64,000 nucleotides of DNA from Candidatus Oxydemutatoraceae bacterium (lineage in GTDB: Bacteria; Pseudomonadota; Gammaproteobacteria; Poriferisulfidales; Oxydemutatoraceae), in contig OZ244717.1 of the NCBI GenBank assembly GCA_965218975.1, forward strand, positions 338,347 to 402,346, written 5' to 3'. The notes under the pieces are model-generated. The model saw only the letters and a list, made by a program, of their open reading frames with translations. It searched no databases and had not been told where the DNA came from. Positions 13,701 to 29,661 of the stretch are shown one piece after another; the stretch's first letter is position 1; every line of letters starts with the position of its first letter. Made by a program: the position numbers and the translations under genes.

Positions 13701-15981
13701 CCCGCGTATTCCGTAGCTATATGCTACGGCCTCATTGAAGCTCTACGGTGATCTGACCGAGCACTTCCAACTCAGCGTATTCCGTAGCTATATGCTACGG
13801 CCTCATTGAAGCTACGCAGCGGTACGGCGTCTCGGAGCCGCACACTTGGGTATTCCGTAGCTATATGCTACGGCCTCATTGAAGCGAGGCAGCTTTGTCC
13901 ATTTGCTGGAGCCGCACGCGGTATTCCGTAGCTATATGCTACGGCCTCATTGAAGCCGGTGTAAAATCATCCATCAAAATAACGGTCTTGCTGTATTCCG
14001 TAGCTATATGCTACGGCCTCATTGAAGCTCATTGACTCGGGATATGGACGTCCTCGATTCTTTAGTATTCCGTAGCTATATGCTACGGCCTCATTGAAGC
14101 TATGCAAAAGATACCGAAGAATACAATAATTTGAAGTATTCCGTAGCTATATGCTACGGCCTCATTGAAGCTTTGAAGATCAATATGTATTCAATCGTTA
14201 AGTTGGGGTATTCCGTAGCTATATGCTACGGCCTCATTGAAGCACATTGGATAGTGCTGCGATTGAGCCTTTTATGAGAGGTATTCCGTAGCTATATGCT
14301 ACGGCCTCATTGAAGCCCATTCTCCAAAGCTGCCGCGAGAAACCCGTTCCCGCGTATTCCGTAGCTATATGCTACGGCCTCATTGAAGCCTCACTGCCTT
14401 CGTTTCCTTCCAGCATAATTACAGCGTATTCCGTAGCTATATGCTACGGCCTCATTGAAGCTATATTTTTTTTCTACATCTTCCATGTTTTATCTCCGTA
14501 TTCCGTAGCTATATGCTACGGCCTCATTGAAGCGCGGATGATAATTTGTGCAATTCCCTCATTTGCCTTAAGTATTCCGTAGCTATATGCTACGGCCTCA
14601 TTGAAGCCCGGAAGTTAAAGTCCCCATGTCCGCAGTTAAAGCGGAGTATTCCGTAGCTATATGCTACGGCCTCATTGAAGCGGCTCGGCAATTTCAGTCA
14701 TCAAATCTTTATAACTCGTATTCCGTAGCTATATGCTACGGCCTCATTGAAGCATGATGGTGTTTTAGCACCGTCATGAATGATGTTAAGTATTCCGTAG
14801 CTATATGCTACGGCCTCATTGAAGCTTGTTGCAGTATTTATTTTTATCTCGCTTGTCATGTTGTATTCCGTAGCTATATGCTACGGCCTCATTGAAGCTG
14901 GTAAGCACATTCGACTCAACCATGGCTTTCCTCACGTATTCCGTAGCTATATGCTACGGCCTCATTGAAGCTGTGTGGCGGAATGTCCCTTTTGGGTATA
15001 GTTTATCCGTATTCCGTAGCTATATGCTACGGCCTCATTGAAGCAGCGAAGAAGCCGATGAGGCAGGCGTATATATAGTGTATTCCGTAGCTATATGCTA
15101 CGGCCTCATTGAAGCGACCGCTGTAACTACGACCTGTCACATTACATAATGTATTCCGTAGCTATATGCTACGGCCTCATTGAAGCGGTGCTTTACTCAC
15201 GCATTCAAGGAATCCGGCGCATGTATTCCGTAGCTATATGCTACGGCCTCATTGAAGCAAATCTCCGTTGTTGTGGTGCCGGCAAGAGCGCCGGGTATTC
15301 CGTAGCTATATGCTACGGCCTCATTGAAGCAACCTTTGCATCTGGGGATAAAAAACAGTACTGGAATGTATTCCGTAGCTATATGCTACGGCCTTATTGA
15401 AGCATTGCAAATCATCCATATACGGATAAGGAAACAAAGTATTCCGTAGCTATATGCTACGGCCTCATTGAAGCTTTGGCTTCTATTGTTCTGCGCGGTT
15501 CGGGTACGCATGTATTCCGTAGCTATATGCTACGGCCTCATTGAAGCCCAACTATTTGGTCAACACCTATCAACCCAGAAATAAGTATTCCGTAGCTATA
15601 TGCTACGGCCTCATTGAAGCGACTCAACGCTAATGACGCATACGGCAAAGCCGGATGTATTCCGTAGCTATATGCTACGGCCTCATTGAAGCGGCGTTGG
15701 GTAAATCTCAGCTAGTGCGTAAAGTGCACGTATTCCGTAGCTATATGCTACGGCCTCATTGAAGCGATTTTCTAAGTCAGGAAGCTCCAACCCGCAACAT
15801 AGGTATTCCGTAGCTATATGCTACGGCCTCATTGAAGCAAGCCGCTGTTATATCGAGTGGTCAAGGAGTGAGTGGTATTCCGTAGCTATATGCTACGGCC
15901 TCATTGAAGCTTTTCGTTATTGGGACGCAAGTCATTCCAGGAGACGTATTCCGTAGCTATATGCTACGGCCTCATTGAAGC
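10750..15981 (+). CRISPR. CRISPR array, ~73 repeats of 36 bp (GTATTCCGTAGCTATATGCTACGGCCTCATTGAAGC) with ~35-37 nt spacers
   Basis: A perfect 36-bp direct repeat recurs at ~72-73 bp periodicity, with an internal 7-bp palindrome CCGTAGC-TATAT-GCTACGG. The 3' 'ATTGAAGC' end resembles the I-C/I-G 'ATTGAAAC' handle. The leader is cas2-proximal. One repeat (15368-15403) carries a C>T variant. Confidence 0.97.
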
Positions 15982-16010: not shown

Positions 16011-16901
16011 TCAACGTTCACCACTGAATAAAGCCTCTTGAATGTCGCCTTGAATACAATTCTTCACGCCATTCGCATTTCTTTGTTTTGTATTTTTAAC
16101 AGGTTTCCTAAGTGGTTGCCCATTATGTTCAAGATACCCAAGAACTCTCCGCAAGCCAATTTCAACATGCTTTTGTGATCTTTCAATACCGATGCTTTTT
16201 CTACCTAATGTTCGTGCAACTGCATTAGTAGTAAATGCTCCTGCAAACGGGTCAAGAATTATATCTTCTTTATTTGAACTTGCTTGAACAATTCTTTGAA
16301 GAAGCGTTTCAGGTTTTTGGGATGGATGATCTTCATATTCATCCATCTTGTAACGTACTCGAGGAAAATACCAAACATTTCCTGGAACTTTTTTCGTATT
16401 ATAAATCGTTGGAATCTTTTTTCTGTAGTCAATAAGTTTACGTTTAGCCCCCGTTTTAGCTTCTATAGCAATTGTGTCAGCGTTAAAAGTGTAATTATCA
16501 AGATCTTTCACACAGAAAAGAATCGGTTCATACATGGAACCATAATATTTTTTCGCTTGCACCCCCGAACTATCATATGACCAAATAATTCTGCTAAGTA
16601 TGTTTATTCTCTTTCTCAATATAATATCTATGTAGGGCATAGCTTGGGTGCTTGTCATCACATACATAGAGCCTTGAGATGAAAGTTTATCAATACAAAG
16701 AGTTAACCATTTCTCACACCATTCAGCATACGCTTCATCAGAAGGCCATTTGTCATCAAATCCATCAAAGCGTTTCCCAATGTTGTAAGGGGGATCAGCA
16801 AATATCAAATCAATTGAATTATTAGCAATTTTATCGCGTAATACTTCTATTGCATCGCCTTGGTAAATGGCATGATTTTTTATTTCGTATTTTTTAATCA
16901 T
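16011..16901 (-). CDS. DNA methyltransferase, beta-class (motif IV 'DPPYNIG' precedes motif I 'LDPFAGAFTT'); N6-adenine or N4-cytosine
   Basis: 296 aa with both catalytic and AdoMet-binding motifs. The start codon is 4 nt downstream of the IS1595 transposase stop. Confidence 0.85.
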   Translation of the reverse strand: MIKKYEIKNHAIYQGDAIEVLRDKIANNSIDLIFADPPYNIGKRFDGFDDKWPSDEAYAEWCEKWLTLCIDKLSSQGSMYVMTSTQAMPYIDIILRKRINILSRIIWSYDSSGVQAKKYYGSMYEPILFCVKDLDNYTFNADTIAIEAKTGAKRKLIDYRKKIPTIYNTKKVPGNVWYFPRVRYKMDEYEDHPSQKPETLLQRIVQASSNKEDIILDPFAGAFTTNAVARTLGRKSIGIERSQKHVEIGLRRVLGYLEHNGQPLRKPVKNTKQRNANGVKNCIQGDIQEALFSGER

Positions 16902-16905
16902 TAAA

Positions 16906-17826
16906 TCAAGCTACCAATTGTTCATAAGTAATCGTCTTCCCAACCATGGCCTTAAAGAGATCATCAAGTCTGTCCTGTGTATCACGTTTCACATTGCCTT
17001 CATTAAGTCTGAATGTAAACTCATTTACATATTGTTGACAATGCTTCTTGCTCCAATTGTGGTAAACACCATTGAAGCCACGTTTAATCACTGACCATAC
17101 AGATTCAACTCCATTAGTATGCGCCATCCCGTTAACATATTCTCTTGCTGAATGTTTTACGCTTTCATGCTGATAATAGTCGCCTCCAATATCTTTATAA
17201 CCCTTGTGGTCATCCGTATAAATGGTGGTACCCACTTCAATGTTAGCAAGAACAGCACTATGAATAGTAGCCTTGTCTTCACCTTCAACTGGCATAGCTT
17301 TTACACGGCCTTCCCGTTCTCTCATACCCAGCACAGCCTGCTTTCCCACAGTACCGCGTCCGGCCTTGAGTTTCTTATGAGAGTGTTTATTCTTTTCAGC
17401 CCTACCAATATAGGTGGCGTCCATTTCCACTTCACCACTCAAGGCTTCAAGATTGTTGCCGCAAGCTAAACGTAGCCTATGCAGCATGTACCAGGCTGTC
17501 GGATAGCTAACGTCCAGTTCCTTGCTTAATTGCATGGCGGAAATACCTTTACGGGCGGTCATAAGCAGATACGCTGCAAATAGCCACATACGGGCATCAC
17601 GCACCCTGTTATGTTCAAGTGGGGTTTCTGTGAAAGCATTGAAATATCCGCGACAATCGCCGCACCAATAACCTTTCTTGTAGTTCTTTTGCTTGGTGAT
17701 TCTGCCGGTACAGCCGCATTTGACACATACAGGCTTAGTTCCCCATCTAAGCTGCTCAAGCTTCGGCAAAAATGTTTTCAAGGGCAATTTCATAATTGGA
17801 CTCTTTTGGCGATAGACCCCGTTCAA
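16906..17826 (-). CDS. IS1595-family (ISXO2-like) DDE transposase
   Basis: N-terminal zinc ribbon 'CVKCGCTGRITKQ...CGDCRGYF', a 'TAWYMLHRLR' helix and a DDE core 'IYTDDHKGY...HTNGVESVWSVIKRGFNGVYHNWS' are present. The start may be the second Met (17793). Confidence 0.8.
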   Translation of the reverse strand: MNGVYRQKSPIMKLPLKTFLPKLEQLRWGTKPVCVKCGCTGRITKQKNYKKGYWCGDCRGYFNAFTETPLEHNRVRDARMWLFAAYLLMTARKGISAMQLSKELDVSYPTAWYMLHRLRLACGNNLEALSGEVEMDATYIGRAEKNKHSHKKLKAGRGTVGKQAVLGMREREGRVKAMPVEGEDKATIHSAVLANIEVGTTIYTDDHKGYKDIGGDYYQHESVKHSAREYVNGMAHTNGVESVWSVIKRGFNGVYHNWSKKHCQQYVNEFTFRLNEGNVKRDTQDRLDDLFKAMVGKTITYEQLVA

Positions 17827-18193
17827 TTGATTTATTGCGGGTCACGCCCCGTGCCTTTAGGCAGGCAACTTTTAGGAGCCACTCATCAACATCCGGAATC
17901 CATTGTTCCTTTGTATCCGAAGGCAGCAGAAAAAGTCTTTGCTTCCCACCTTCGAGAAAGGGACTTTGTAAATTGTCACGTATATTTTTTAAAAGTATAT
18001 CGCTTGCTACAGAATCATCATAAATTTTATGGCACCAATTCCAAATCGGACCAAGTTTATCGGCCTTATCAACCACTTCCCCTGTTTCATCAAGGAGGAT
18101 ACTAACAGGAATTAGCTTCTTGTCGAACGCCTTCTTAGGATCAACAAGAGATTTACCGATTTTGGAATTTCGGTAACGTAATTCTTCCTTCAT
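17756..18193 (-). CDS. Hypothetical protein (145 aa), last gene of the GHKL/desulfurase operon
   Basis: Co-directional ORF after the 300-aa gene. No recognisable motif. Confidence 0.4.
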   Translation of the reverse strand: MKEELRYRNSKIGKSLVDPKKAFDKKLIPVSILLDETGEVVDKADKLGPIWNWCHKIYDDSVASDILLKNIRDNLQSPFLEGGKQRLFLLPSDTKEQWIPDVDEWLLKVACLKARGVTRNKSIERGLSPKESNYEIALENIFAEA

Positions 18194-18298
18194 CTACCAA
18201 TTTAATCCAATCATGAATTGAGCGTTCTTTATAGATTGTTTCCATAGTCTGTTGTCCTCCTTATCGGAAATACAACCTCTGCATCGACAATTGCAGCT

Positions 18299-19201
18299 TC
18301 AATTCTTTCCATCTTCAGCGGCTTTGACTGCATCAACAACGTCATCAGCAAGTCGACGAAGTTCAACATATTCAAGCACTGCTAGTTCTCGAGAACCGCC
18401 GATAAAGCAAATCTCCCGGCATACATCTAGCACTTTGCCGGCAGGCGGCAGTTTGCCGCTACTTTCATTGTCGTCGGGAAGAAATCTTGTGAGACTCGCC
18501 GCCACGGCTTCTTGGACCGAAGCTATTCCAAAAACGGGATTCCTGGATACCATTGCAGATACAAACCATTCCCAGTGGGCTTTTGTTTGCCGAAGTATTT
18601 TTCCTATCCGGTCTTTCGCTATCCCGGATTGTATCTCGGCTCGCCGAACTAGCCGCTCCCGCCACCAAGCTCTCGCAAACGGACAATCAACAAGAACACT
18701 TTTGTTCCCCCGAACATGAGGCAATCCACCCAGTTGGCGTAGAACCGAACGCACGCAGTTGTCCGTTTGCTCTTTTCTTTTAGGGTTCTCGTTGGCCATT
18801 ATCCTGTCAATACGCTCTGCGCCTGTTTGTGATGCGATCCCATTACTTGCGAGGAAACTCGGTTCGATTCGACCTTCCCGAACGTGGCACATAGTGACAT
18901 GAGTCCAAAATAATGTGCTTGAGGCAATCGACAAAGAAAGGTTATTCCAGAGATCGTACATCTTGGATTCAGTGCTAGCTGGGGGATCCTTGAATTGCGC
19001 CTCGCTCATCTTGACCTGATACAGATCGGGATCAATCAAACCAGAAACCGGAATCTGCTCCATAGTTTTGATGAATGCTTCCCCGTCTCTGATCTCTTGA
19101 AGAAATGCCTCTTGTTTTTCGCTACCTTTCTCGCTAAGCAAATTCGCCCGGAATTTGGCCCACTCTTTGTCGTCAAGACATTTCCAATCAAGTTCACTCA
19201 T
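18299..19201 (-). CDS. Hypothetical protein (300 aa) in the GHKL/desulfurase operon
   Basis: Its start overlaps the upstream stop (ATGA at 19198-19201). No family recognised. Confidence 0.55.
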   Translation of the reverse strand: MSELDWKCLDDKEWAKFRANLLSEKGSEKQEAFLQEIRDGEAFIKTMEQIPVSGLIDPDLYQVKMSEAQFKDPPASTESKMYDLWNNLSLSIASSTLFWTHVTMCHVREGRIEPSFLASNGIASQTGAERIDRIMANENPKRKEQTDNCVRSVLRQLGGLPHVRGNKSVLVDCPFARAWWRERLVRRAEIQSGIAKDRIGKILRQTKAHWEWFVSAMVSRNPVFGIASVQEAVAASLTRFLPDDNESSGKLPPAGKVLDVCREICFIGGSRELAVLEYVELRRLADDVVDAVKAAEDGKN

Positions 19202-20087
19202 CTTCGTGCCTCAATGGTGGGGGTACATCATGCGGATAAAGCAGCGTTGCAGCCTCCTCAGGTCTGAAATCCGGATCTTCCCAATTACAATTAGTGCAGC
19301 CTTTCGTTTCCAGATCATTGGCAAGCGATTCTAGAGCTTTGTAACTGCACCATCCTTCTTCACTATCTCCGTCGGAATCCTTGTATTTCCGTTGCAGTGC
19401 AGAAAAGCACGAAGTCACGACATGAGTCATAATGTCCTTGCGTTTATCCGAATAGTGCCCTTTGTCTTGAAGAAAAGTATAAAGAGCTGGACCACAATGT
19501 ACTACGAAGCGGAACGTGTCTCCATCAACAGCCTCTGTATAAAATTGGCCTTGCTTTAAGCTTTCGTCCGACCAAATAGAAATGAGTCCTTGAAGACCTG
19601 ATGCCCCAAGATTAAATACCGGCCCCTGCGCAAGCCAAGCACCCTTCGGAAATATTACTTCCAAACCATTCCAGTCGGGATGTACATCATCCTTTTCAGA
19701 ATCCAGAGTACAGAATATTTCCCGGATGCATACAATTACTGGAGTGAAGTACGGAGGCTCACCAAAGTTTGTGTTATTCCAAGCAATTTCCTGGGTCGGA
19801 TCTTGAGAACACTGAAGTTCCCGATACGCCGAGCGAGGCGCGGCCAAAGAACAAGCATACCGGGCATGTTTTTGCGCAATCAGTCGCTCGACCAGACGGG
19901 CACCCGTCACCGAATGCGTTAGCAAGAAGCGGCTTTTGTCGGAACTAAACCTATGTTGAACCTGACTATGTTGAACCTGATAATTGCCATTCGGGAAGGC
20001 ATCATTGCCTTCCTCAATTGCCGGATAATTACGCGCCAGAATCGCGTTCGCCCCGGGGGCGCTCTTGGCGTTGATGTCGGTATTCAT
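19194..20087 (-). CDS. Hypothetical Cys-rich protein (297 aa) in the GHKL/desulfurase operon
   Basis: A 4-bp overlap with the upstream GHKL gene. The C-terminal 'GWCSYK...KGCTNCNWEDPD' may be a zinc-binding cluster. Confidence 0.55.
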   Translation of the reverse strand: MNTDINAKSAPGANAILARNYPAIEEGNDAFPNGNYQVQHSQVQHRFSSDKSRFLLTHSVTGARLVERLIAQKHARYACSLAAPRSAYRELQCSQDPTQEIAWNNTNFGEPPYFTPVIVCIREIFCTLDSEKDDVHPDWNGLEVIFPKGAWLAQGPVFNLGASGLQGLISIWSDESLKQGQFYTEAVDGDTFRFVVHCGPALYTFLQDKGHYSDKRKDIMTHVVTSCFSALQRKYKDSDGDSEEGWCSYKALESLANDLETKGCTNCNWEDPDFRPEEAATLLYPHDVPPPLRHEDE

Positions 20088-22051
20088 TCTGAAGTGCTTA
20101 TGGTGGGCTTAGTATCATCGGAGGGTCTCTTGCCAATCTCCACTCGGAGACTTGCTCCGGATTGGATAGGGACACCATCGGCTGCCAGTTTATATTCGGC
20201 CTCTACTTCGGTCGTAGTATTCTTTCCAAGATTGCCCAGCAAAATAGCAGGATAGGGTTTGGTAATTATTCTATCCGGCTGAATCGTTTTTCCATTGACC
20301 TTCGCCGCGGTGATTGCGGCAACACGATCAGTCCATATACGCTCAGTCGTTACATCCGAATGATCATCAACAACGAGACGGAGTTCCAGATCTTCACAAG
20401 GCTCAATGCAATGGATCCGGATTTTCCGGCGATTTGAAGCCGATGGAGTAACAACGATCTTAAAATATTGCGGCAAGGTCGGCCTTTCCCGAGAGCCGCT
20501 CCGGCTACTTTGCCGTCTTTTCCCGGTATTCTTGCTTCGGCCCTTGTTCCTGCCACCTGTCGTTCCCCCGGGCCCTGTTTCATGTGGTCGCCGTGAGGAT
20601 ATCCGTCTCTTAATCAGCGCGATTGTGCCCTGATATTCCCGACCGGCTTTTTTTCCTTGTCGGCTTCCGGCGGTGCTATCAGGGAAGACCAAGAAGTCGT
20701 CAGGGCTATACTCGTCAGAAGTAAGTTTTGGTATTACCTCTTCGATTTTCTTTTTAATCACATTAAATGCCTGACGTAGCTGCTTCCAGTCCTCGTTGCT
20801 GATAGCCTTCTTATCAAGCCGATTGTGTAGAGGCCCCTCAGCTTTTCCAATAAGATCGTGGAACCGGCGGGGCGCGCTCTTTGCGGAAACCAGAACCAAA
20901 CCTTCAAAGGCCTCATAGTCTGCAAAGTTAAAACCGGGAATGTTGCCGGTAATCCACATACCGTTCCTGCAAAGATTTACTCGCGTTCGCCCTGAAGGCG
21001 CCGGATGCTGAACGAAAAGTCTTACCGAGCCATCCAGGACCTCAACTTCATGGCGATAACCTCCTCGGTAGGCTTGATAGGCAAAAAATGCCTGTTCGCC
21101 CGGGAGATAGTCCTTTTTCCGTTTTTGTTCCCGATATTTCTCCAGAACAGTCTGCAACTGCTCACTCGTAAGTTCCCGCTGGGGCTTATTGCCCTCGCCT
21201 TCAATAACCACCTCGAGCTGCCCATCAGCTATTGCGACAAAAAAACTACAGGCAATAGCCTCCGGTACGGTATCAGATAGAAAATCCTTATCCTTACTAC
21301 GAAAACGGTTGAATGCAGGAACGATAACGGCAGTCCCATGTCCGGAATCCTTCTCAATATCCGCCAAAGCGTTTTTAATCAATATCGGAAGGTCATTTCC
21401 CCACGGGTATATGTATTCTCTTTTTTTGCGATCAACCAAGTAATAACCGTTAGCGCTCCGCCCTGTGTCGTCGCTCTGGTTAGCATAATGGGATGCGAGA
21501 ATTGCGTGGCCGCTTGCAATCCGTTTCCCGTTGCAAATACCACCGTAGAGTACATACCTGAGATCTGAGGCGGGAAATAACGAAAAATGCCCAACGCCGA
21601 AGGTACCGGACGCTCCACTTTCCTTGCGACTTCTGCCGTCCGACAATAATGCCGTCATTCTGTCTTTGTCGAGGCCAATACCATTGTCCGAAACAATAAG
21701 TGCCTGCTGCCAATCTTGTGATAGCGCTTCAGAGATTCTGTCAGCCACAATTTGCTCCTGATCATTGAGCGAACCGTTGTTTTCCTCCTCACGCCTTTTC
21801 ACTGCTTTCTTAAAAGCGGATTTATAACTCTCAATTCCAGGTATATCTTCGGTTTTTACCTCCGTAGTAGAAAAACGTACTATAGCCCTAGCCTCACGAA
21901 CCCCAGTGTAATGGAGGGCGGCGGCGGCATCCAGAGAATTTTGGATCAGCTCGCGCACAATTGCGAACGAACTCATCTCTCGGAAGCTGCTAATGCTAGC
22001 AGCCGTAAATCCGTAAGAGTCACTCGATTTGAAAAAATAAAGATCTGTCAT
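20084..22051 (-). CDS. GHKL-superfamily (MORC/MutL/Hsp90-like) ATPase, 655 aa
   Basis: Bergerat-fold motifs are 'VRELIQNSLDA' (N box), 'VSDNGIGLDKD' (G1) and 'GTFGVGHFSLF' (G2). There is a basic low-complexity linker and a C-terminal domain. The ORF overlaps the desulfurase stop by 4 bp. Confidence 0.8.
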   Translation of the reverse strand: MTDLYFFKSSDSYGFTAASISSFREMSSFAIVRELIQNSLDAAAALHYTGVREARAIVRFSTTEVKTEDIPGIESYKSAFKKAVKRREEENNGSLNDQEQIVADRISEALSQDWQQALIVSDNGIGLDKDRMTALLSDGRSRKESGASGTFGVGHFSLFPASDLRYVLYGGICNGKRIASGHAILASHYANQSDDTGRSANGYYLVDRKKREYIYPWGNDLPILIKNALADIEKDSGHGTAVIVPAFNRFRSKDKDFLSDTVPEAIACSFFVAIADGQLEVVIEGEGNKPQRELTSEQLQTVLEKYREQKRKKDYLPGEQAFFAYQAYRGGYRHEVEVLDGSVRLFVQHPAPSGRTRVNLCRNGMWITGNIPGFNFADYEAFEGLVLVSAKSAPRRFHDLIGKAEGPLHNRLDKKAISNEDWKQLRQAFNVIKKKIEEVIPKLTSDEYSPDDFLVFPDSTAGSRQGKKAGREYQGTIALIKRRISSRRPHETGPGGTTGGRNKGRSKNTGKRRQSSRSGSRERPTLPQYFKIVVTPSASNRRKIRIHCIEPCEDLELRLVVDDHSDVTTERIWTDRVAAITAAKVNGKTIQPDRIITKPYPAILLGNLGKNTTTEVEAEYKLAADGVPIQSGASLRVEIGKRPSDDTKPTISTSE

Positions 22052-23202
22052 GCTACTGCTACTCCTTCACCAAACTGCCGTTCAAACGCAAGAGCGGCAA
22101 GCATAATATCCTCCTCTGTGGTAAACCGGCCTAGGCTAATACGGACCGCCTGAAGCGCCGACAAAGGCGGTTGTCCGAGGGCCGTTAAAACATGAGACGG
22201 TTCAACCCCTCGTGACGAACAGGCAGAACCCGTTGAAATCGCCACGCTCCCTTCAAGCCCGGCAATTACTTCATCTCCGGATATCCCCGGAAACGACACA
22301 TTTAAACTTCCCGGTACACGTTGATATTTGTGCCCGTTCAGTTGAAGCCCTGGCGCGCTTTTCTGCAGTAACTGCCATAGCCGGGAAGTCAGTTTCCTGA
22401 TACGTAACGAATCCTTTTCTGTCTCATTCAACGCAATTTCACATGCCGCACCAAAGCCAACAACGAGATGTACGGGCAAGGTGCCGGGACGTAAGCCGCG
22501 CTCCTGACCACCTCCTGTAGCAACCGGCCCGATGCGATCAAAAGTATCGTTGTGGACATAGAGGACCCCAATCCCCATCGGGCCATATACTTTGTGCGAG
22601 GATAACGACAACAGGTCGATTCCAAGCGAATCGACATCAATTCCTATTTTTCCGGCGGCTTGGGTTGCATCCGTATGCATTAACGCACCATGCTCATGGG
22701 CAATCGACGCAATCTCGGCAACCGGATGAACAACTCCAATTTCGTTATTAACCAGCATAGCGGATACTATCGCAGTCTTATCGCTGATCGCATCTTGCAT
22801 TTCGTCCATATCCATAATGCCGTCCGGATTCACCCCGATCTTGCGGATAGGAACTCCATCCAAACCCAATGCTCGAACTGTTTCCAAAACTGCCGGGTGC
22901 TCGGTAGCTACAGTAATAATCTCGTTACGGCCAGTGCTTCTCTTGATCGTGCCTCGAAGCGCAATGTTGCAGGATTCCGTTGCGCCGGAAGCAAAAATAA
23001 TTTCTTGGTCGTCTGCGCCTAACAGGGCAGCTACCTGAGCACGACCTTCAGCTACGGCCCGCGCCGCATTCCATCCATAGGCATGATGGATTGCATGGGG
23101 ATTCCCAAAACGCTCTTGCAGAAAAGGCTGCATGGCATCTCGAACCCGGGGGTCAAGCGGAGTGGTGGCCTGGTAGTCCAGATACACCGGTGCAGAAGCC
23201 AT
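22048..23202 (-). CDS. Cysteine desulfurase (class V PLP aminotransferase; IscS/NifS/DndA/SspA-like)
   Basis: PLP-lysine motif 'SSHKVYGPMGIGVLYV' and active-site Cys loop 'STGSACSS'. The likely start is 'MASAPVYLDYQATTPLD' at 23202. The longer listed ORF to 23274 overlaps the upstream gene. Confidence 0.85.
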   Translation of the reverse strand: MASAPVYLDYQATTPLDPRVRDAMQPFLQERFGNPHAIHHAYGWNAARAVAEGRAQVAALLGADDQEIIFASGATESCNIALRGTIKRSTGRNEIITVATEHPAVLETVRALGLDGVPIRKIGVNPDGIMDMDEMQDAISDKTAIVSAMLVNNEIGVVHPVAEIASIAHEHGALMHTDATQAAGKIGIDVDSLGIDLLSLSSHKVYGPMGIGVLYVHNDTFDRIGPVATGGGQERGLRPGTLPVHLVVGFGAACEIALNETEKDSLRIRKLTSRLWQLLQKSAPGLQLNGHKYQRVPGSLNVSFPGISGDEVIAGLEGSVAISTGSACSSRGVEPSHVLTALGQPPLSALQAVRISLGRFTTEEDIMLAALAFERQFGEGVAVA

Positions 23203-23206
23203 ATGT

Positions 23207-24568
23207 TTAGTCAGTGCAATCACATGGCAACATGGCCTTGGTTTCAGTGAGCGCTTGGACTCCGCGGTCCGCAATGTTTCGGTAAGTCATCTTGCTGTTC
23301 GTTCCAAAGAAACCGACTGTACCGTCAATGCCTCGTTGTTCTGCTGTCAAATCCCGAGTGTAGGTATCCTCTATACGAGCCCACCAAGCGACATCCATCG
23401 GTGTGTTCTGCTGACTGTTAGGTAAATCTGCCTCGCATTCCGAATGAATACTCTCATAAACCTTAGTCAGGTTTGATGTTCCCTTGAGAAAACAGTAAAC
23501 ACAATTGGACAGATGCCCGGTCGCGGGGAGTTTCAATTCAAAATCCTTGTTTTTCCGCCAGAATGCCTTAACGTCTTCTTTTTTTACACACATGTCTGAA
23601 AGCGGCATATAGACATGTTCTCCTTCATACTCCCGAACCTCAGAACTGCCCGAGATTCTCGCTTCGACACGTTGCACACGTGCCTCTTCATCTCCCCTCA
23701 ACCCGATAAAAGCGACATATTGCACTCCACCCTCGCCAAATACAGCATTCCCCCCATACGCTTTCCCATCCAAGAGCTTACTGTCCATGGCGTCTGATGC
23801 TGTCGAAAAATCCTTATAACGTTGCTCCGGACGACATACCGGCTGTGACATCACAAATTTCTTCTTGGCCAGAAAAATATCTCTTGGGACCCCGCCATTA
23901 TTGCGACGGTGGCGTTGATAAAGCGTTTCCTCATCAACCTGGGGCTTATTCTCCCAATGGCCAAGACGAGGAATGATTTTTTTGCAGGCCAGCCAGTCGC
24001 GCAGAAACATTCGTGTTGTCTCAAGTTTCAGAGTTGCTGTGCAGGTCCGGCGGAACTGGTTGGGAACATACCCTGACCACGACAACATCTCCTCAAAGAC
24101 CTCGCCCCTCCAGCAGTAACCATCCGGGTTATTTTCCGAACGAGGCTTGGCATTCACTAGCCGATAGGAAGGCAAACGAGTCCAGTCGCCGTTGCGCACA
24201 TCTTCATAGGTTTGATACTCGATCAGAAAAAATGGAATTCCGTAGCAAGATTCTGCTCGTTTCTTGCATTGGGCTACAAAGTCATAGGTGGCCGGATGTT
24301 CGGCAGCAGTATTGTTAAAGAGTATGACATCACCGCGCTCGGCCTTTAGTACACGGTTTTCCAGCAGAGTAAACAAAAGCATTCCGCTGGATCGACCGCC
24401 GGAGAATTTGACAACGTGAGGAAAATTCTCGTGCCTTTTAGACCGATATCGAAACTGATACTCGAACTCCGGATCGTATTTTTTTGGTTTGCGAAGGCGT
24501 TTCGAAACTACTAGCTTGGGAATTCCTTTTACAGAATGTTTAACAAGATTTTCTACAACGGTCTGCAT
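23207..24568 (-). CDS. PAPS-reductase-family PP-loop ATP pyrophosphatase (DndC/SspD-like), 453 aa
   Basis: PP-loop 'VVKFSGGRSSGMLLF', 'FNNTAAEHPATYDF', and a C-terminal Cys cluster 'MLPCDCTD'. Confidence 0.7.
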   Translation of the reverse strand: MQTVVENLVKHSVKGIPKLVVSKRLRKPKKYDPEFEYQFRYRSKRHENFPHVVKFSGGRSSGMLLFTLLENRVLKAERGDVILFNNTAAEHPATYDFVAQCKKRAESCYGIPFFLIEYQTYEDVRNGDWTRLPSYRLVNAKPRSENNPDGYCWRGEVFEEMLSWSGYVPNQFRRTCTATLKLETTRMFLRDWLACKKIIPRLGHWENKPQVDEETLYQRHRRNNGGVPRDIFLAKKKFVMSQPVCRPEQRYKDFSTASDAMDSKLLDGKAYGGNAVFGEGGVQYVAFIGLRGDEEARVQRVEARISGSSEVREYEGEHVYMPLSDMCVKKEDVKAFWRKNKDFELKLPATGHLSNCVYCFLKGTSNLTKVYESIHSECEADLPNSQQNTPMDVAWWARIEDTYTRDLTAEQRGIDGTVGFFGTNSKMTYRNIADRGVQALTETKAMLPCDCTD

Positions 24569-24623
24569 TACGGCCTGCCTCCAAAAATCCGGGAATTATT
24601 AAGATTCGTTGACAAGGACTGAC

Positions 24624-24968
24624 TTATTCAACCTCTTCCATGATTGGTTTTCCCTTGCGACCTACCCGCATTCTAAACTTTCTTTGCAAGTCTTTCTTGA
24701 AAACATAGGTTCGATTAAGAGGGTAAAACTCGTTCATCATCGAAAGTTTAGACATGACAAAAGAGTCTTTATCGTAATTTTCATCAAAATCGCAACCCCA
24801 TCCAAAGCAAACAAACGGCGTCAGAGCCTCATGGTTCATCGCTGCCCTGATGCCTATCAGATTCTTGCCAAGTCGTTCTATAGCGTTTCCTTGTGCCTGT
24901 TTTTTCTTTCCTTCCTGTTCACGTTCCCTATTCGTTCCCTGTTTCTTTATTTCTGAAACAACAATCAA
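24624..24968 (-). CDS. Possible small protein (114 aa) at the head of the sulfur-modification-like operon
   Basis: Co-directional ORF 55 bp upstream of the PP-loop gene. Lys/Glu-rich N-terminus, no motif. It may be non-coding. Confidence 0.25.
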   Translation of the reverse strand: MIVVSEIKKQGTNREREQEGKKKQAQGNAIERLGKNLIGIRAAMNHEALTPFVCFGWGCDFDENYDKDSFVMSKLSMMNEFYPLNRTYVFKKDLQRKFRMRVGRKGKPIMEEVE

Positions 24969-25031: not shown

Positions 25032-25781
25032 TCAATCAGTAAACACCAAATCAAACTCATGTCTCTGGCCGGCCCCTTTGATTATAGATGGCTTTGTCGC
25101 TCCGTTTGGAGTCTTTATTCTTGACCTTGTGTTGCGCCGTGTTTTGGCGCAGATCCTCTGCTCTAGCCACTGTAGAAATAATGCCCCTTTTAGCCCATGA
25201 ATATTGAAAATCAAAACTTCACTATGGAATAGAACATCGTTGTATATGTCTTTCGGCAAGGCCACTATAGACGTGATTTCAGGGTAGGTTCCATCTACAA
25301 AACGCATCCAACGCTTGCTATTCAGAGTCTGGTTAAGACGTAACCCATAAGGCGCAAACAAAACAATCGGGATGTTTTTACCAAATAACTCTATCGTTTT
25401 ACGCAACCAGACTTCAAGTAAAAGCGGACGTCTGCCGAATGTTTCCGATACCAACTGTTTTGTTTTTTCTTCAATATTAAAAGGCGGGTTCGCAATGACA
25501 AGTGCGGGTTTTTCCACTTCACCTCTTGAAAGGGAAATAAAATCCCTGACAATCGTGTCGGGAAATCCTTGATCCTCTATGTCAACCCCTTTTGTTTTGA
25601 ACCCCGCTTGCTTAAAAGGGATAAGAAGCGAACCCTTACCTACACACGGGTCAAATACGATTCTGTCGGATTTGATTTTCTTATGAACAATACTAAACAG
25701 GAATTGGCTTAATTCCGGCGGGGTGTAGACTGTGGAGTTCTTTTGCTCCTTGTAAAAGTCGTTGCGGTCAACGCGATACAT
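25032..25781 (-). CDS. N6-adenine DNA methyltransferase, gamma-class (motif I 'FDPCVGKGSL' then motif IV 'NPPF')
   Basis: 249 aa. The ATG immediately abuts the TGA of the upstream IS1595 transposase remnant (tgaATG). Confidence 0.8.
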   Translation of the reverse strand: MYRVDRNDFYKEQKNSTVYTPPELSQFLFSIVHKKIKSDRIVFDPCVGKGSLLIPFKQAGFKTKGVDIEDQGFPDTIVRDFISLSRGEVEKPALVIANPPFNIEEKTKQLVSETFGRRPLLLEVWLRKTIELFGKNIPIVLFAPYGLRLNQTLNSKRWMRFVDGTYPEITSIVALPKDIYNDVLFHSEVLIFNIHGLKGALFLQWLEQRICAKTRRNTRSRIKTPNGATKPSIIKGAGQRHEFDLVFTD

Positions 25782-26544: not shown

Positions 26545-27060
26545 AGAAACATTTGAAACCGTTTTGTGTTTGGTGGCAGATTGTCGGCGGATTGTGCCGG
26601 ATTATTGGTGGATTGTTGGTAGGTTGTGCCGGATTATTAGCAAAGTGCATGTCGTCCATGACGCGACTGGGTTCTGTCAACAAGCCCCAGCCCCGACATC
26701 CTTGTCGGGTCGTTCGCCGCTGAAAACCGTTCGGTTTTCCGGGCGCGGCTTACCCATGACGCGACTGGGTTCTGTCAACAAGCCCCAGCCCCGACATCCT
26801 TGTCGGGTCGTTCGCCGCTGAAAACCGATCGGTTTTCCGGGCGCGGCTTACCCATGACGAGACTGGGTTCTGTCAACAAGCCCCAGCCCCGACATCCCTG
26901 TCGGGTCGTTCGCCGCTGAAAACCGTTCGGTTTTCCGGGCGCGTCTCACCCGACAACGGACAGAAAGCACCGATCCGAATGTTGCTGCCGAATGCTTCCC
27001 CGGAAGCCCTTCAAGAATCCCATTTAGGGTGGCATCGTACATTCTTGACAAGCCCGCCGC
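26545..27060. repeat. Composite intergenic repeat locus R1: GGATTGTCGG-type short repeats, 3 tandem ~98-bp two-hairpin units, and a conserved ~110-bp tail
   Basis: The unit 'ATGACGCGACTGGGTTCTGTCAACAAGCCCCAGCCCCGACATCCTTGTCGGGTCGTTCGCCGCTGAAAACCGTTCGGTTTTCCGGGCGCGGCTTACCC' recurs three times. It carries hairpins CCGACA-tcct-TGTCGG and GAAAACC-gttc-GGTTTTC. Confidence 0.9.
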
Positions 27061-27487: not shown

Positions 27488-27852
27488 TCGTTCGCCGCTG
27501 AAAACCGTTCGGTTTTCCGGGCGCGGCTCACCTGTTTTGTGTTTGGTGGTAGATTGTCGGCGGATTGTGCCGGGTTGTTGGTGGATTGTTGGTAGGTTGT
27601 GCCGGATTATTAGCAAAGTGCATGTCGTCCATGACGAGACTTCGTGCTGTTAATGAACCCCAGCCCCGACATCCTTGTCGGGTCGTTCGCCGCCCGCTAA
27701 AAAAGGTGGCACCGTTCGGTTTTCCGGGGCGCGGCTCACCCATGACGAGACTTGGTTCTGTCAATGAGCCCCAGCCCCGACATCCCTGTCGGGTCGTTCG
27801 CCGCTGAAAACCCCGCTGAAAACCGTTCAGTTTTCCGGGCGCAGCTCACCCT
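27488..27852. repeat. Composite repeat locus R2 (same family; head plus ~2.5 units)
   Basis: Same head ('gattgtcggcggattgtgccgggttgttggtggattgttgg...caaagtgcatgtcgtccatgacg') and same hairpin units as R1. Confidence 0.9.
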
Positions 27853-27909: not shown

Positions 27910-29661
27910 ATGCGAGCCGAAATCGGACAGCGCCGGCAACCGATATATCCTCGCATCCCGGTAACATTGCCTGCGCGGACCGCGCAGCTCATTGGGTTAC
28001 AATACCCCGTAGCTAAAAATAAAAAAGGTCTGACTGACAACTACATGTTTTACCTAGATACGACAACGCCTTTATTTCAAGACAAAGAGAATCAAGACCT
28101 GATTACCATATATCAGGCGAGTGTTTGGATATCAAAGCACCTAAACAAAGAAGTAACCTCCTCCAATATCTCGTATCTAATCCAATACGGAAGGATTGCC
28201 AAATATTCGGAGAACGGGACAACCGCGGTCAGTAAAAACGAGCTGGTCAATTACTATAAAGGCTTTCTTCAGGACCGGGAAAGTGTTTGGAAGAATAAGC
28301 TCGGGGACGACCTAAACTGGAATCTTTCATTCGACTTCCTCAGAGAGAAAGACACAACGAAGCATGTGCATCGATTTCATCCCTACAAGGGGAAGTTTAT
28401 CCCTCAATTAGTTGAGTATTTCTTGGATGGCCACACGGATGAGTTTAAAAAAGAGGCCTTTTTCCAAACCGGGGATATTGTTTTAGACCCGTTCTGCGGC
28501 AGCGGAACAACGCTGGTGCAAGCAAACGAACTCGGAATGCACGCCGTCGGCGTTGACATTTCAGCTTTCAATACTTTGATTGCCAACGTAAAAATAGCGA
28601 AGTATGACCTCAACGAGCTGCGCAACGAACTGAGATGCATAGGCCTTTTACTTCGGCGGAAAACATACGATTCTCCGAATATTGAGTTTGAAAGAGAATT
28701 GTCGGAAGCGTTAAACGTCTTTAATAAAAACAACTTTCCGACACCGGATTTCAAAAGAAAGCTTCGGGTAAAGGAAATAGATGAAAAAACTTATGCCTGC
28801 GAAAAAGAGAAGGAATTTATGCCTGCTTATGACAAATTGGTTAAGAGGCATCGTATTCAAATTAAGCAGACTAAAACCGGCCGTTTTACGGACAAGTGGT
28901 TTTTGAGGCCCGTAAAGGATGAGATAGAGTTGTTGCTCAAACAAATCAGGGAAGTCAAGAATGAGCGCATCAGAAAAATCTTGGAAATCGTTTTAAGCAG
29001 AACCGTTCGGTCGTGCCGAGCTACGACCCATGCCGACCTGGCCACCTTGAAAGAGCCCGTAACAAAACCGTATTACTGCAAAAAACACGGCAAGATTTGC
29101 AAGCCCTTGTTTTCTGTCCGGTCGTGGTGGAAGAGATACGGTGAGGACACTTTAATCAGGATTCAGGCATTTAATACTCTGCGCACTGAAACCAAACAAA
29201 TCTGCCTGCAGGGAGATTCGAGAACAATAAACTTGATTGATCGCCTGCCGGGGAAAGAGAAGCGCCTTGCGGGACTTATAAAAAGCAAAGGAATAAACGG
29301 CATATTTACCAGTCCTCCTTATGTCGGACTGATTGACTACCACGAACAGCACGCCTACGCATACGACCTATTTGGCTACAAAAGAAACGACCGGCTTGAA
29401 ATAGGCCCCCTGTCCGAAGGGCAAGGCGCTATAGCAAGACAAACTTACTCGGAGTCAATTGCCGAAGTGCTACGAAATTGCAGAAAATACCTTGCGAAGG
29501 ACTTTAATGTTTTTCTTGTCGCGAATGATAAATACAACTTGTATCCATCAATCGCCAAACTTGCCGATATGCGCATAGCGAATACGTATAAGCGACCGGT
29601 TCTTAACCGAACGGAAAGGGATAAAGGGGCTTATTCGGAGATGATATTTCACTTGAAATAA
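27910..29661 (+). CDS. DNA methyltransferase (motif I 'DPFCGSGTT', motif IV 'SPPYVGLIDY'; SPPY suggests N4-cytosine or N6-adenine), 583 aa
   Basis: Both MTase motifs are present. The true start may be internal (e.g. Met at ~28045). Confidence 0.75.
   Translation: MRAEIGQRRQPIYPRIPVTLPARTAQLIGLQYPVAKNKKGLTDNYMFYLDTTTPLFQDKENQDLITIYQASVWISKHLNKEVTSSNISYLIQYGRIAKYSENGTTAVSKNELVNYYKGFLQDRESVWKNKLGDDLNWNLSFDFLREKDTTKHVHRFHPYKGKFIPQLVEYFLDGHTDEFKKEAFFQTGDIVLDPFCGSGTTLVQANELGMHAVGVDISAFNTLIANVKIAKYDLNELRNELRCIGLLLRRKTYDSPNIEFERELSEALNVFNKNNFPTPDFKRKLRVKEIDEKTYACEKEKEFMPAYDKLVKRHRIQIKQTKTGRFTDKWFLRPVKDEIELLLKQIREVKNERIRKILEIVLSRTVRSCRATTHADLATLKEPVTKPYYCKKHGKICKPLFSVRSWWKRYGEDTLIRIQAFNTLRTETKQICLQGDSRTINLIDRLPGKEKRLAGLIKSKGINGIFTSPPYVGLIDYHEQHAYAYDLFGYKRNDRLEIGPLSEGQGAIARQTYSESIAEVLRNCRKYLAKDFNVFLVANDKYNLYPSIAKLADMRIANTYKRPVLNRTERDKGAYSEMIFHLK

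Follow-up and report, generated by a model that had tools for sequence, protein, structure and literature searches.

Gene content of the locus

The 64,000-nucleotide stretch of DNA analyzed here, referred to as the window, is a defence island with a type I-G CRISPR-Cas system, a 73-repeat array and remnants of restriction-modification (R-M) systems. Its minus strand carries a five-gene core (18299-24568) of intact, tightly spaced genes. The first (23207..24568) encodes a PP-loop ATP pyrophosphatase of 453 aa, the predicted sulfur-inserting "writer," and the second (22048..23202) a class-V PLP cysteine desulfurase of the IscS/NifS/DndA/SspA type, the predicted sulfur donor, with 384 aa counted from its ATG start and not from a TTG further upstream at 23274. 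These are followed by genes for a GHKL (Bergerat-fold) ATPase of 655 aa (20084..22051), assigned by its catalytic motifs and the PADLOC model PDC-M33A; its 297-aa partner, the "B" protein (p297; 19194..20087), assigned by PDC-M33B; and an all-alpha DUF6339-family protein of 300 aa (p300; 18299..19201). Start and stop codons overlap at three junctions of the operon. The 4-bp overlaps reported in a preliminary description of this DNA hold for desulfurase/GHKL and GHKL/p297 (ATGA), but p297 and p300 overlap by 8 nt, and the remaining spacings are gaps of 4 nt (PP-loop stop to desulfurase ATG), 55 nt (orf114 to PP-loop gene) and 105 nt (p300 to p145). All seven ORFs of that description were found in place, together with every motif quoted for them: KFSGGRSSG and the C-terminal LPCDCTD in the PP-loop protein, SSHK and STGSACSS in the desulfurase, and ELIQNSLDA, DNGIGL and GTFGVGHFS in the ATPase. 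Its operon of six or seven genes, however, is reduced to the five-gene core, with both outer ORFs excluded.

One of these, orf114 (24624-24968, minus strand; 114 aa), aligns with an interior portion of EcoRI-type restriction enzymes (Pfam, 1.2e-4; PADLOC REase_II, 1.5e-5), and none of the 80 related loci described below has it; it was rejected as a component of the system and is regarded as an EcoRI-like relic. The other, p145 (17756..18193, minus strand), is what is left of a sixth, variable gene of the DUF262/GmrSD_N type, which, when intact, encodes ~440 to 620 aa; an intact copy reads in the direction of the core in 24 of the 80 loci. In the closest relative, a 443-aa GmrSD_N/DUF262 gene (L081:4960-6291) comes after p300, and p145 aligns with residues 128 to 318 of its product (BLASTP, 7e-42, with a 57-aa gap); by tblastn, 25 DUF262-cluster proteins were placed, through residues ~129 to 327, on window positions 18184-17759. 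Since p145 has an internal deletion (57 residues) and has lost both ends (~127 N-terminal and ~125 C-terminal residues), it is a pseudogene fragment. The 3' end of this remnant is overlapped by an IS1595-family transposase gene (16906..17826, minus strand; Pfam DDE_Tnp_IS1595, 3.3e-43; NCBIfam transpos_IS1595, 4.8e-57). The transposase gene is not part of the system and marks its broken point; the boundaries of the element are undefined because no terminal inverted repeats were found. The decay of the DUF262 partner next to the IS1595 element suggests that the locus is probably modification-only. The two flanking methyltransferase genes, previously proposed as partners, show no conserved partnership in the related loci.

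Conservation and relatives of the core proteins

According to the preliminary description, these genes should co-occur in other genomes, and they do. The order PP-loop, desulfurase, GHKL, p297, p300 is kept in ~73 of the 80 related loci identified by tblastn in other genomes; all of these genomes are uncultured MAGs, and they span at least 10 phyla. The desulfurase gene comes after the PP-loop gene in 76/80 loci and the p297 gene after the GHKL gene in 74/80; a DUF262 gene takes the place of the desulfurase gene in L041 and L072, and the PP-loop relatives of L044 and L060 are without the GHKL/p297/p300 trio. At 39% identity a homologue is still linked with the trio, with the gene order permuted. 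Moreover, the pairwise-identity matrices of the five proteins correlate (Spearman, 0.58 to 0.86), with values of 0.75 to 0.79 for the PP-loop protein against the trio and 0.78 to 0.86 inside the trio; mean identity is 39 to 44% in the trio versus 55 to 57% in the PP-loop/desulfurase writer pair. The five-gene core is therefore a real operon, far beyond chance. Its distribution is patchy (165 matches among 185,579 species genomes), which fits horizontal transfer, and the core is a conserved, horizontally spread, mobile operon.

The PP-loop protein has an SGGRSSG motif and six conserved cysteines (C101, C176, the pair C356-x-x-C359 and, at the C-terminus, C449-x-C451). It was not assigned to any family of Pfam or NCBIfam, whose PAPS_reduct and DndC models, respectively, did not match it. 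In PADLOC, SspD (4e-7; 28 bits across a 33-residue stretch) and BrxP (1e-5) matched the window copy weakly and partially and DndC did not match it, while all 16 family members tested matched SspD (best, 6.6e-11) and 15 of them BrxP. No relative was found among PDB sequences, and none of the TtcA, MnmA, ThiI and TilS models matched at E<=0.01. Identities as DndC, SspB/C, DndD/E or BrxC failed all tests and were rejected. With an AF2 model of pLDDT 84.7 and pTM 0.89, the protein is a distant SspD/BrxP relative with a PAPS-reductase-like fold, in a family of 916 clusters at 50% identity (E<=1e-3). The desulfurase matches Pfam Aminotran_5 (6e-82) and, in PADLOC, SspA (1.8e-140) and DndA (2e-140); its NCBIfam scores for IscS (423 bits), DndA (395) and NifS (391) are all under the equivalog cut-offs. 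The pairing of a PAPS-reductase-like PP-loop enzyme with an SspA/DndA-type desulfurase, as first proposed, is thus borne out.

Members of the PP-loop family also occur with cytosine-5 DNA methyltransferases. P0313 is a fusion to a full C5 enzyme (Pfam DNA_methylase on record), the context of the fusion being an ICE-like mobile element; P0323 and P0294 have C5-MTase motifs at the C-terminus; and a C5 methylase gene directly follows a PP-loop gene on a T4-like phage-type contig. These fusions and adjacencies in distant relatives on mobile elements suggest that the substrate of the operon is most likely DNA.

As for the trio, the GHKL motifs (E34-x3-N38-x2-D41, D122-N-G-x-G126 and G149-x2-G152-x-G-H155) are invariant across 49 homologues, and a basic low-complexity linker (approximately residues 480 to 525) leads to a conserved C-terminal domain. 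Besides PDC-M33A (1.1e-36), two NCBIfam models matched the ATPase at scores under their cut-offs, the sacsin ATP-binding domain (4.8e-8) and the HSP90 family (3e-5), and a PDB profile search returned HSP90 (E=0.007), MORC3 (0.3) and MutL (0.6). The GHKL assignment of the preliminary description is therefore kept, but its "MORC-like" qualifier has no specific support, the sacsin/HSP90-type matches being better, although still weak. p297 matches PDC-M33B (1.1e-6), with no relative in Pfam, NCBIfam or the PDB; only C79 and C227 are conserved, so the cysteine richness once ascribed to it is not a family trait. Homology between p297 and p300 was rejected (hhalign probability, 0.1). PF19866 is found on most of the p300 homologues listed (24 to 32 bits in three that were rescanned), and the window copy had no Pfam match; its AF2 model reaches pLDDT 93.2. 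An Arg/Trp-rich core at residues 151 to 175 (GGLPxVRGNxSVxVDCPFARAWWRER) is ~92% conserved. Neither p297 nor p300 matched the DndB, DndE or SspB models.

Plasmids of Lactococcus, Ligilactobacillus, Planococcus and Deinococcus also carry the trio, with no sulfur genes beside it; in the first three, stops and starts overlap and the three-gene order is identical. By blastp, the window GHKL protein matches its plasmid counterpart at 1e-21 and p297 the second plasmid gene at 3e-6; the third gene, the p300 counterpart, is labelled "DUF6339 family protein" in RefSeq. The Lactococcus trio adjoins AbiGI/GII and an AlwI-family REase, those of Planococcus and Deinococcus come after a C5 MTase, and that of Ligilactobacillus comes after hsdS and an N6 MTase.

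Phosphorothioate-associated neighbours and known systems

Phosphorothioate (PT)-associated genes (PbeA/C, DndB, TIGR04096 or DUF262) lie within 10 kb of the core in 49 of the 80 loci, the other 31 having no recognized PT-associated neighbour. They include PbeA (PADLOC, 4.8e-151; TIGR04095, 7.7e-93), the TIGR04096 [quoted passage not shown] (1.2e-183) and DGQHR/DndB proteins exceeding the TIGR03187 cut-off, along with PbeC, a PbeD-sized ORF and DUF262. Where ORFs were listed in full (e.g., L006), no DndC/D/E was seen beside the core. None of the Pbe, DndB and DUF262 modules is strictly specific to PT systems. In line with the PT context of the core, 320 of 553 pbeAC pairs are "solitary," without dndCD nearby (PMC6459918).

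Each of the four known PT systems relies on a PAPS-reductase-domain protein, and an NTPase is additionally required in Dnd, Ssp and BREX-4 (PMC12914056). Like SspABCD and BREX type 4, the operon combines a dedicated IscS-like desulfurase, a PAPS-reductase-like PP-loop enzyme, whose only defence-library relatives are SspD and BrxP, and an ATPase; its DUF262-family partner recalls SspE. However, the similarity to SspD/BrxP is weak and partial, DUF4007 (SspB), the BrxC/SspC P-loop ATPase (DUF6079), PglZ and BrxL are absent, the ATPase is of the Bergerat fold with two uncharacterized partners, and no DUF1524/HNH nuclease domain is recognizable in the DUF262 partner. The operon follows the logic of DndABCDE, in which five genes supply a desulfurase, a PAPS-reductase-like writer, an ATPase and small or unknown proteins for DNA handling; in both, a ParB-like gene (DGQHR/DUF262) is optional and the modification module often occurs without a restriction module. 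The accessory PbeA/C/D-like, DndB-like and TIGR04096 genes resemble those of Dnd with DndFGH or PbeABCD. Nevertheless, it has no homologues of DndC, DndD (an SMC-like ABC ATPase) or DndE (RHH), its desulfurase falls under the DndA equivalog cut-off, and its writer has a cysteine pattern of its own (C176, CxxC and a C-terminal CxCT[DE]). In the thermophile TdpABC system, compared by description, the single writer TdpC is reported to act via an adenylated DNA intermediate; with PP-loop relatives found apart from the trio, a PP-loop-type writer may suffice alone here as well. No TdpA/B-like genes were recognized in the operon. Overall, its helper proteins are unlike those of the four known PT systems.

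The plasmid trio is PDC-M33, an unpublished candidate system in PADLOC (PMC11811056). It has the GHKL protein, the partner and the gene order in common with the operon, but lacks the PP-loop and desulfurase genes, adjoins DNA methyltransferases or Abi genes and is only ~25% identical in sequence. Prokaryotic MORC/paraMORC proteins are likewise Bergerat-fold ATPases inside DNA-modification or defence operons, although the ATPase described here is not specifically MORC-like; in the survey of MORC/paraMORC in R-M systems by Iyer, Abhiman and Aravind (2008), neither PAPS reductase nor desulfurase nor Dnd genes were reported as linked to them. No gene of the operon could be assigned to a characterized pathway or to a canonical Dnd/Ssp family, and no description of the operon was found in the searchable literature. 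These results, with the conserved co-occurrence of the genes, the PT-associated genes and the methyltransferase::PP-loop fusions, support the original proposal of an undescribed sulfur-modification system.

Proposed mechanism and competing explanations

The operon probably serves a defence system as its module for DNA sulfur modification, and its best reading is a self-marking system of a fifth, undescribed type, which would label DNA with sulfur, probably as a backbone phosphorothioate. The full statement, in which host DNA is self-marked with sulfur, the product is PT and the trio is a machine that assists the writer, is put forward tentatively, at slightly less than an even chance. In this scheme, the desulfurase would draw sulfur from L-cysteine as a persulfide and hand it to conserved cysteines of the PP-loop enzyme, the candidates being the flexible C-terminal CxC tail and C176 with the CxxC, the latter a likely Fe-S or relay site. 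The PP-loop enzyme would then activate (adenylate) the DNA target with ATP, and sulfur would replace the activated oxygen. The GHKL ATPase, p297 and the DUF6339 protein may form an ATP-driven, DNA-engaging machine that couples the writer to DNA, substituting for DndD/DndE or SspB/SspC, and the mark would be read by interchangeable adjoining modules (PbeABCD-like, DUF262-family or DndB/DGQHR genes).

Since the trio is found without sulfur genes and is listed by PADLOC as a stand-alone candidate, it may be an effector and not a helper of the writer. The operon would then be a complete R-M-like system, in which the PP-loop enzyme and desulfurase alone write the mark, as TdpC by itself does in Tdp systems, and the trio attacks, clamps or silences incoming unmarked DNA. 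We consider this rather unlikely, even though the plasmid trios sit in defence contexts, the ICE-like fusions, the phage contig, L044 and L060 have PP-loop relatives without a trio, MORC-type GHKL ATPases have been predicted as parts of R-M systems (PMC2292703), and the faster evolution of the trio relative to the writer pair is typical of arms-race components. Against it, no nuclease-like motif or domain was detectable in the trio proteins, and the extra reader or restriction-type module in 49 of the 80 loci would be redundant. In addition, writer-helping DndD/DndE cores also adjoin cytosine methylases without DndC (PMC10853773), so that the plasmid contexts cannot discriminate a helper from an effector, and in Planococcus and Lactococcus the MTase next to the trio could be part of the AlwI-family R-M system beside it.

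The chemistry of the mark could also differ from that of the PT reading, with the PP-loop enzyme adenylating a base carbonyl and so producing thiolated bases in DNA such as 2-thio- or 4-thio-pyrimidines. Such base thiolation would itself be novel as a DNA modification and would suit the base-flipping cytosine-5 methyltransferases fused or adjacent to distant PP-loop relatives, and DndC models miss the family while those of SspD and BrxP match it weakly. We regard it as improbable: the PT writers SspD and BrxP are the only relatives found at the level of sequence, the tRNA-thiolation-type models gave no match, the neighbours (PbeA/C, DndB, TIGR04096) are companions of PT systems, and bona fide Dnd components are also accompanied by C5 methylases (PMC10853773). 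Finally, the writer pair might be a housekeeping sulfur relay for tRNA thiolation, Fe-S or cofactor synthesis lying beside an unrelated GHKL defence cassette. The desulfurase does score highest against IscS models, and its PP-loop partner has fold neighbours with Fe-S-type cysteines that thiolate tRNA. Nevertheless, this explanation is strongly disfavoured and very improbable, as no tRNA-thiolation, ThiI, MnmA, TtcA, MoaD or ThiS-pathway model matched, and it is opposed by the adjacency of the genes across phyla and, in permuted order, at 39% identity, by the tight co-evolution of the proteins, by their patchy distribution and defence-island setting and by the existence of the DNA methyltransferase fusions.

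The core operon and its surroundings

The ORF listing contained all seven minus-strand ORFs of the preliminary description, at matching coordinates and with every quoted motif present. Its operon of six or seven genes was narrowed to five intact, tightly packed ones, encoding a PP-loop ATP pyrophosphatase (23207-24568), a cysteine desulfurase (22048-23202, from ATG), a GHKL ATPase (20084-22051), and the proteins p297 (297 aa; 19194-20087) and p300 (300 aa; 18299-19201), while the ORFs beside this core, orf114 and p145, proved to be relics and not members. The desulfurase start was set at the ATG because a longer ORF from TTG would overlap the upstream gene. As seen in the junction sequences, the 4-bp overlaps described earlier hold, as ATGA, at desulfurase/GHKL and GHKL/p297, but p297 and p300 overlap by 8 nt and the other junctions are spaced, with 4 nt from the PP-loop stop to the desulfurase ATG, 55 nt between orf114 and the PP-loop gene, and 105 nt after p300. 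Sites found by a promoter and terminator scan were no more frequent than chance.

As an operon member, orf114 (114 aa; 24624-24968) was rejected: its similarity to EcoRI-type enzymes is limited to an internal segment of them, and it is absent from the other loci. It adjoins a short N6-methylase-like ORF and is a remnant of another restriction-modification (R-M) system. The EcoRI-type relics comprise orf114, which matches the middle portion of EcoRI-family endonucleases, and a 249-aa ORF (25032-25781) whose N-terminal part (residues ~14 to 58) matches N6-adenine DNA methylase. The proposed seventh component, p145 (17756-18193), was likewise discarded, since it is what is left of the inner part of a DUF262/GmrSD_N-family gene, equivalent to residues 128 to 318 of the closest relative's DUF262 homologue, minus 57 aa internally; the DUF262 N terminus is entirely gone in the window copy, and at its 3′ end the fragment overlaps an IS1595 transposase ORF (16906-17826), for which no terminal inverted repeats were found. 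Five nucleotides past the transposase stop, on the same strand, starts an N4/N6 DNA methyltransferase gene (16011-16901), which might be IS1595 cargo or simply a neighbor.

The operon sits in a defense island. A complete set of type I-G cas genes (Cas3g, Cas8g2, Cas7g, Csb2, and Cas4g/Cas1g; 1087-10243) is followed by a very long CRISPR array (10750-15981) in which a 36-nt repeat (Rfam CRISPR-DR16) occurs 73 times; 30 nt separate the end of the array from the methyltransferase gene at 16011. On the other side, a methyltransferase-like gene of 583 aa (27910-29661) and, directly after it, a 261-aa ORF matching no family (29670-30455) may form another R-M pair of the island. Noncoding DNA separating the R-M relics from the 583-aa gene carries tandem repeats of ~98 to 111 nt, at 26656-26951 (3.0 copies, 96% matches) and 27629-27851 (2.0 copies, 82% matches). 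Further along, an 862-aa ORF (44845-47433) gave a weak match (1.5e-14, far below the cutoff) to the BPTD_3080 restriction endonuclease family, suggesting that the island may extend further.

Predicted writer pair, GHKL trio, and known phosphorothioate systems

In phosphorothioate (PT) writers, an IscS-type desulfurase is joined by a PAPS-reductase-like ATP pyrophosphatase; those of Dnd, Ssp, and BREX-4 also require an NTPase with DNA-handling partners, and the PT restriction modules (DndFGH, PbeABCD, and SspE) are swappable and often missing (PMC12914056, PMC6459918, PMC10853773). A 2026 paper on BREX-4 lists four PT-writing systems, dnd, ssp, tdp, and BREX type 4; in three of them, the PAPS-reductase-like writer is paired with a P-loop NTPase, a neighbor that a recent screen demanded (PMC12914056). 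That screen would therefore have missed a GHKL-based system.

The PP-loop protein, the predicted writer, falls in the PAPS/APS reductase-like PP-loop (adenine nucleotide alpha-hydrolase) superfamily, with an SGGxDS-type PP-loop on a Rossmann-like core. Library scans assigned it to no Pfam or NCBIfam family, and neither single-sequence nor profile searches of the PDB yielded a sequence relative. The NCBIfam DndC model (TIGR03183) did not match it at E ≤ 0.01, and PADLOC DndC matched only 1 of 16 tested family members, weakly (2e-3). PADLOC SspD matched all 16 (best 6.6e-11), the hit in the window protein being partial and confined to a 33-residue stretch (4e-7), and BrxP matched 15 of the 16, weakly and in the PP-loop region for the window protein (1.1e-5). 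These profile scores indicate a distant relative of SspD rather than a member. Cysteines are strongly conserved in the family (C101 at 97%; C176, C356, C359, C449, and C451 each at 100%), in a pattern that would fit an Fe-S site and a persulfide-carrying tail. Relatives number more than 1,280 at 90% clustering; among 1.84 billion 50%-identity representatives, 916 were found at E ≤ 1e-3 and 134 at E ≤ 1e-30, and viral contigs held no close ones. The desulfurase of the operon is a group-I enzyme of the IscS/NifS/DndA/SspA type. PADLOC DndA matched it at 2e-140, as expected of the DndA/IscS-type enzyme of Dnd, and it scores below every NCBIfam equivalog cutoff (TIGR03235, 395 bits against a cutoff of 480).

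The GHKL ATPase retains invariant Bergerat-fold motifs. Calling it MORC-like, as the preliminary description did, appears too specific, because its best weak matches are of the sacsin/HSP90 type (HSP90, E = 0.007 in a PDB profile search) and MORC3 reached only E = 0.3; Pfam HATPase_c_3, the domain that MORC/paraMORC ATPases combine with an S5-fold transducer domain, gave 17.4 bits, below its cutoff of 25. Apart from these weak hits, PDB sequence searches returned nothing useful for the ATPase, p297, or p300. PADLOC profiles of PDC-M33, one of the PDC-x systems, which are unpublished candidates for defense, matched the ATPase (PDC-M33A, 1.1e-36) and p297 (PDC-M33B, 1.1e-6) in the A-then-B order of that system. 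Most of the p300 homologues listed carry Pfam DUF6339 (PF19866), with marginal scores of 24 to 32 bits in the three rescanned, and a DUF6339 protein also comes third in the plasmid-borne versions of the trio. The predicted structure of p300 is all-alpha (pLDDT 93.2), and no specific structural neighbor was found for the model. Crude blastp clustering had suggested p297 and p300 as paralogues, which hhalign rejected (probability 0.1).

The ATPases and partner proteins of Dnd, Ssp, and BREX type 4 could not be matched to this trio. Dnd uses the SMC-like ABC ATPase DndD with the RHH DNA binder DndE, in contrast to the GHKL-type ATPase here, and NCBIfam and PADLOC found neither among the window proteins. 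The DUF4007 nickase SspB and the BrxC-like P-loop ATPase SspC matched none of the GHKL ATPase, p297, and p300 in PADLOC, Pfam, or NCBIfam. In BREX type 4, BrxP (a PAPS reductase fused to DUF4007) works with BrxC, PglZ, and BrxL, whereas the core operon resembles BrxP weakly and PADLOC detected none of the other three in it. Tdp, the remaining system, consists of the single-enzyme writer TdpC and a TdpA/B restriction pair. The noncanonical character proposed earlier thus stood up to profile searches for DndC, DndD/E, and SspB/C. Full-text searches of the freely accessible literature returned nothing linking GHKL with phosphorothioate and cysteine desulfurase, or HATPase with PAPS reductase and phosphorothioate, and nothing on PDC-M33 or DUF6339. 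GHKL, MORC, and HSP90 are all absent from a 2024 reappraisal of the PT machinery, and a 2008 MORC paper makes no PAPS, desulfurase, or Dnd link.

Conservation of the operon and its neighbors

With each species represented by a single genome, a scan detected 165 loci among 185,579 species; 80 of these loci were retrieved. In about 73 of the 80, tblastn with the window proteins recovered the order PP-loop, desulfurase, GHKL, p297, p300, bearing out the co-occurrence of the five genes in other genomes. The exceptions were loci at contig ends, two with a DUF262 gene for the desulfurase (L041 and L072), one with the trio upstream (L071), and two with the writer pair only (L044 and L060), whose neighbors matched no Pfam family and are unrelated to the trio. 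In 54 complete loci, the five proteins gave strongly correlated matrices of pairwise identity (Spearman 0.58 to 0.86; PP-loop versus GHKL, 0.79); mean identity was 57% and 55% for the more slowly evolving writer pair and 39 to 44% for the trio. In a further locus, L092, with a homologue at 39% identity, the trio comes first and the PP-loop gene last, and its trio aligns with the core trio at hhalign probabilities of 100%, 96.8%, and 98%. The link between writer and trio is therefore more than recently copied synteny.

All 80 loci come from uncultured metagenome-assembled genomes (MAGs), with no cultured isolate among those retrieved from the collection scanned. Their sources are Alpha- and Gammaproteobacteria, Binatia, Latescibacterota, Gemmatimonadota, Chloroflexota, Acidobacteriota, Verrucomicrobiota, Spirochaetota, Rhodothermales, and Desulfobacterota. 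Identities of 50 to 67% across at least 10 phyla suggest intense horizontal exchange within one habitat. Sponge-symbiont names or lineages are common, e.g., Candidatus Poriferihabitaceae (genera Poriferihabitans and Spongiihabitans), pointing to a sponge association through taxon and isolate names rather than metadata; the MAG accessions had no match in a sponge data note. With every retrieved locus uncultured and many so named, the system may be a main item in the horizontal exchange of defenses in this type of habitat.

ORFs around the 80 loci were clustered and then scanned against family libraries. Recurrent neighbors were mostly codirectional with the core, and at least one of DUF262, PbeA, PbeC, DGQHR/DndB, and TIGR04096 lay within 10 kb in 49 loci. 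PbeA-like helicases occurred in 11 loci (PADLOC PbeA, 4.8e-151; TIGR04095, "DNA phosphorothioation system restriction enzyme," 7.7e-93), PbeC with a PbeD-sized ORF in 4, DGQHR/DndB-like genes in 9 (TIGR03187 above cutoff), and TIGR04096, the [quoted passage not shown] in 13 (1.2e-183). Where all ORFs were listed, as in L006, the PP-loop gene is the immediate neighbor of the Pbe genes, with no DndC, DndD, or DndE in between. A protein of ~660 aa with a sigma-70 region-4 (sigma70_r4) HTH was found in 19 loci (L006:2513-4498 and 18 others), mostly immediately upstream of the PbeA-like helicase where both are present; it is absent from the published description of PbeABCD.

A DUF262/GmrSD_N gene was present in 24 of the 80 loci, after p300, between desulfurase and GHKL, or in the place of the desulfurase. 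Intact homologues matched GmrSD_N at 8e-15 to 2e-16, and their C-terminal halves contained no nuclease domain even at E ≤ 1, lacking the DUF1524/HNH domain of GmrSD and SspE. These proteins could be SspE-like readers or DndB-like regulators. Operon-internal copies replace the desulfurase in L041 (11368-13122) and L072 (11440-13041), and internal placement of either kind also occurs in L043, L058, L069, L070, L078, and L079; the C-terminal half of the proteins from L041, L072, and others has no recognizable domain.

Proposed function and alternatives

The operon repeats the logic of PT systems with different parts, and we therefore propose that it encodes a self-marking module: the writer would mark the cell's own DNA with sulfur, and the GHKL trio would stand in for DndDE or SspBC. 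That the operon is a DNA sulfur-modification defense module in general we consider probable; the specific replacement of DndDE or SspBC by the trio is put forward tentatively. A housekeeping sulfur relay is effectively excluded. The main alternative holds that the trio is a modification-sensitive effector and that the writer pair suffices for marking. It is favored by plasmids that carry the trio with neither a PP-loop nor a desulfurase gene (tblastn and RefSeq annotation) and whose proteins are homologous to the core trio (blastp; GHKL, 1e-21; p297, 3e-6). On Ligilactobacillus salivarius megaplasmids (L082), the trio follows hsdS, an N6 methylase gene, and an 80-aa ORF; on a Planococcus lenghuensis plasmid (L087), it follows a C5 methylase gene and a 77-aa ORF, with Vsr and an AlwI-family restriction endonuclease (REase) nearby. 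A Deinococcus actinosclerus plasmid (L086) has a C5 methylase and Vsr near the trio, and in Lactococcus lactis plasmids (L083/L088) it lies beside AbiGI/GII and an AlwI-family REase. Distant PP-loop family members without the trio argue in the same direction. Nevertheless, the core is accompanied by extra reader modules, and no nuclease signature is recognizable in any trio protein; we regard an effector role as possible but less likely than the self-marking reading. Since catalytic motifs are intact in all five core genes and the DUF262 partner is destroyed, the window copy is probably an orphan modification module if the self-marking reading holds, or a complete system if the trio is an effector.

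Trio-less relatives also bear on the substrate and the chemistry. P0313, a PP-loop family protein (L089:8001-10472), is a complete cytosine-5 DNA methyltransferase (FSGIGG, GSPCQDLS, ENV, QxRxR, and GNAV motifs; Pfam DNA_methylase on record) joined to a PP-loop domain in which SGGRSS, NCVxCFLKG, and the C-terminal CxCTD are preserved. Its ICE-like surroundings (Rep3, TopB, SSB, secretin, and T2SSE) contain neither a desulfurase nor the GHKL trio. In P0323 and P0294, the same PP-loop domain is fused to C-terminal C5-methyltransferase motifs (ECERLQ and GNAV blocks). Immediately after the gene for P0314 (L090:4735-6984; 35% identity) comes one for a C5 DNA methylase, and the contig also has T4-like phage genes (gp32, gp59 N-terminal domain, Dam methylase, and Clp protease). 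Long homologues had been considered as desulfurase::PP-loop fusions, which BLASTP rejected, their N termini being C5 DNA methyltransferases. These Rosetta-stone fusions give the strongest indication of DNA as the substrate of the PP-loop family. The fusions may serve anti-restriction modification of mobile elements, an unexplored role. Base thiolation instead of PT draws on the same pairing with base-flipping methyltransferases and on a writer fold that resembles tRNA base modifiers no less than PAPS reductases; we consider it improbable. Equally doubtful is a broader scheme in which a non-PT sulfur mark (e.g., a thiolated pyrimidine on a flipped-out nucleotide) would be used in phages and mobile elements with C5 methyltransferases as anti-restriction hypermodification, and in sponge symbionts with the GHKL machine for self/non-self discrimination; if true, it would add a chemically new class of DNA modification as well as a new defense architecture.

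If the self-marking reading is true, the operon would represent a fifth PT architecture, built on a Bergerat-fold ATPase plus two proteins with no recognized fold. Over half of the PbeAC restriction modules look "solitary" (PMC6459918), and Dnd genes in sponge metagenomes seemed enriched yet "not functionally complete" (PMC5099237); a GHKL-based system may explain both. It would also offer an initial clue to the function of DUF6339 and of the PDC-M33 candidate trio from dairy and gut Lactobacillales plasmids. The ORFs of ~77 aa that precede the Planococcus and Deinococcus trios are homologous to each other (5.5e-20).
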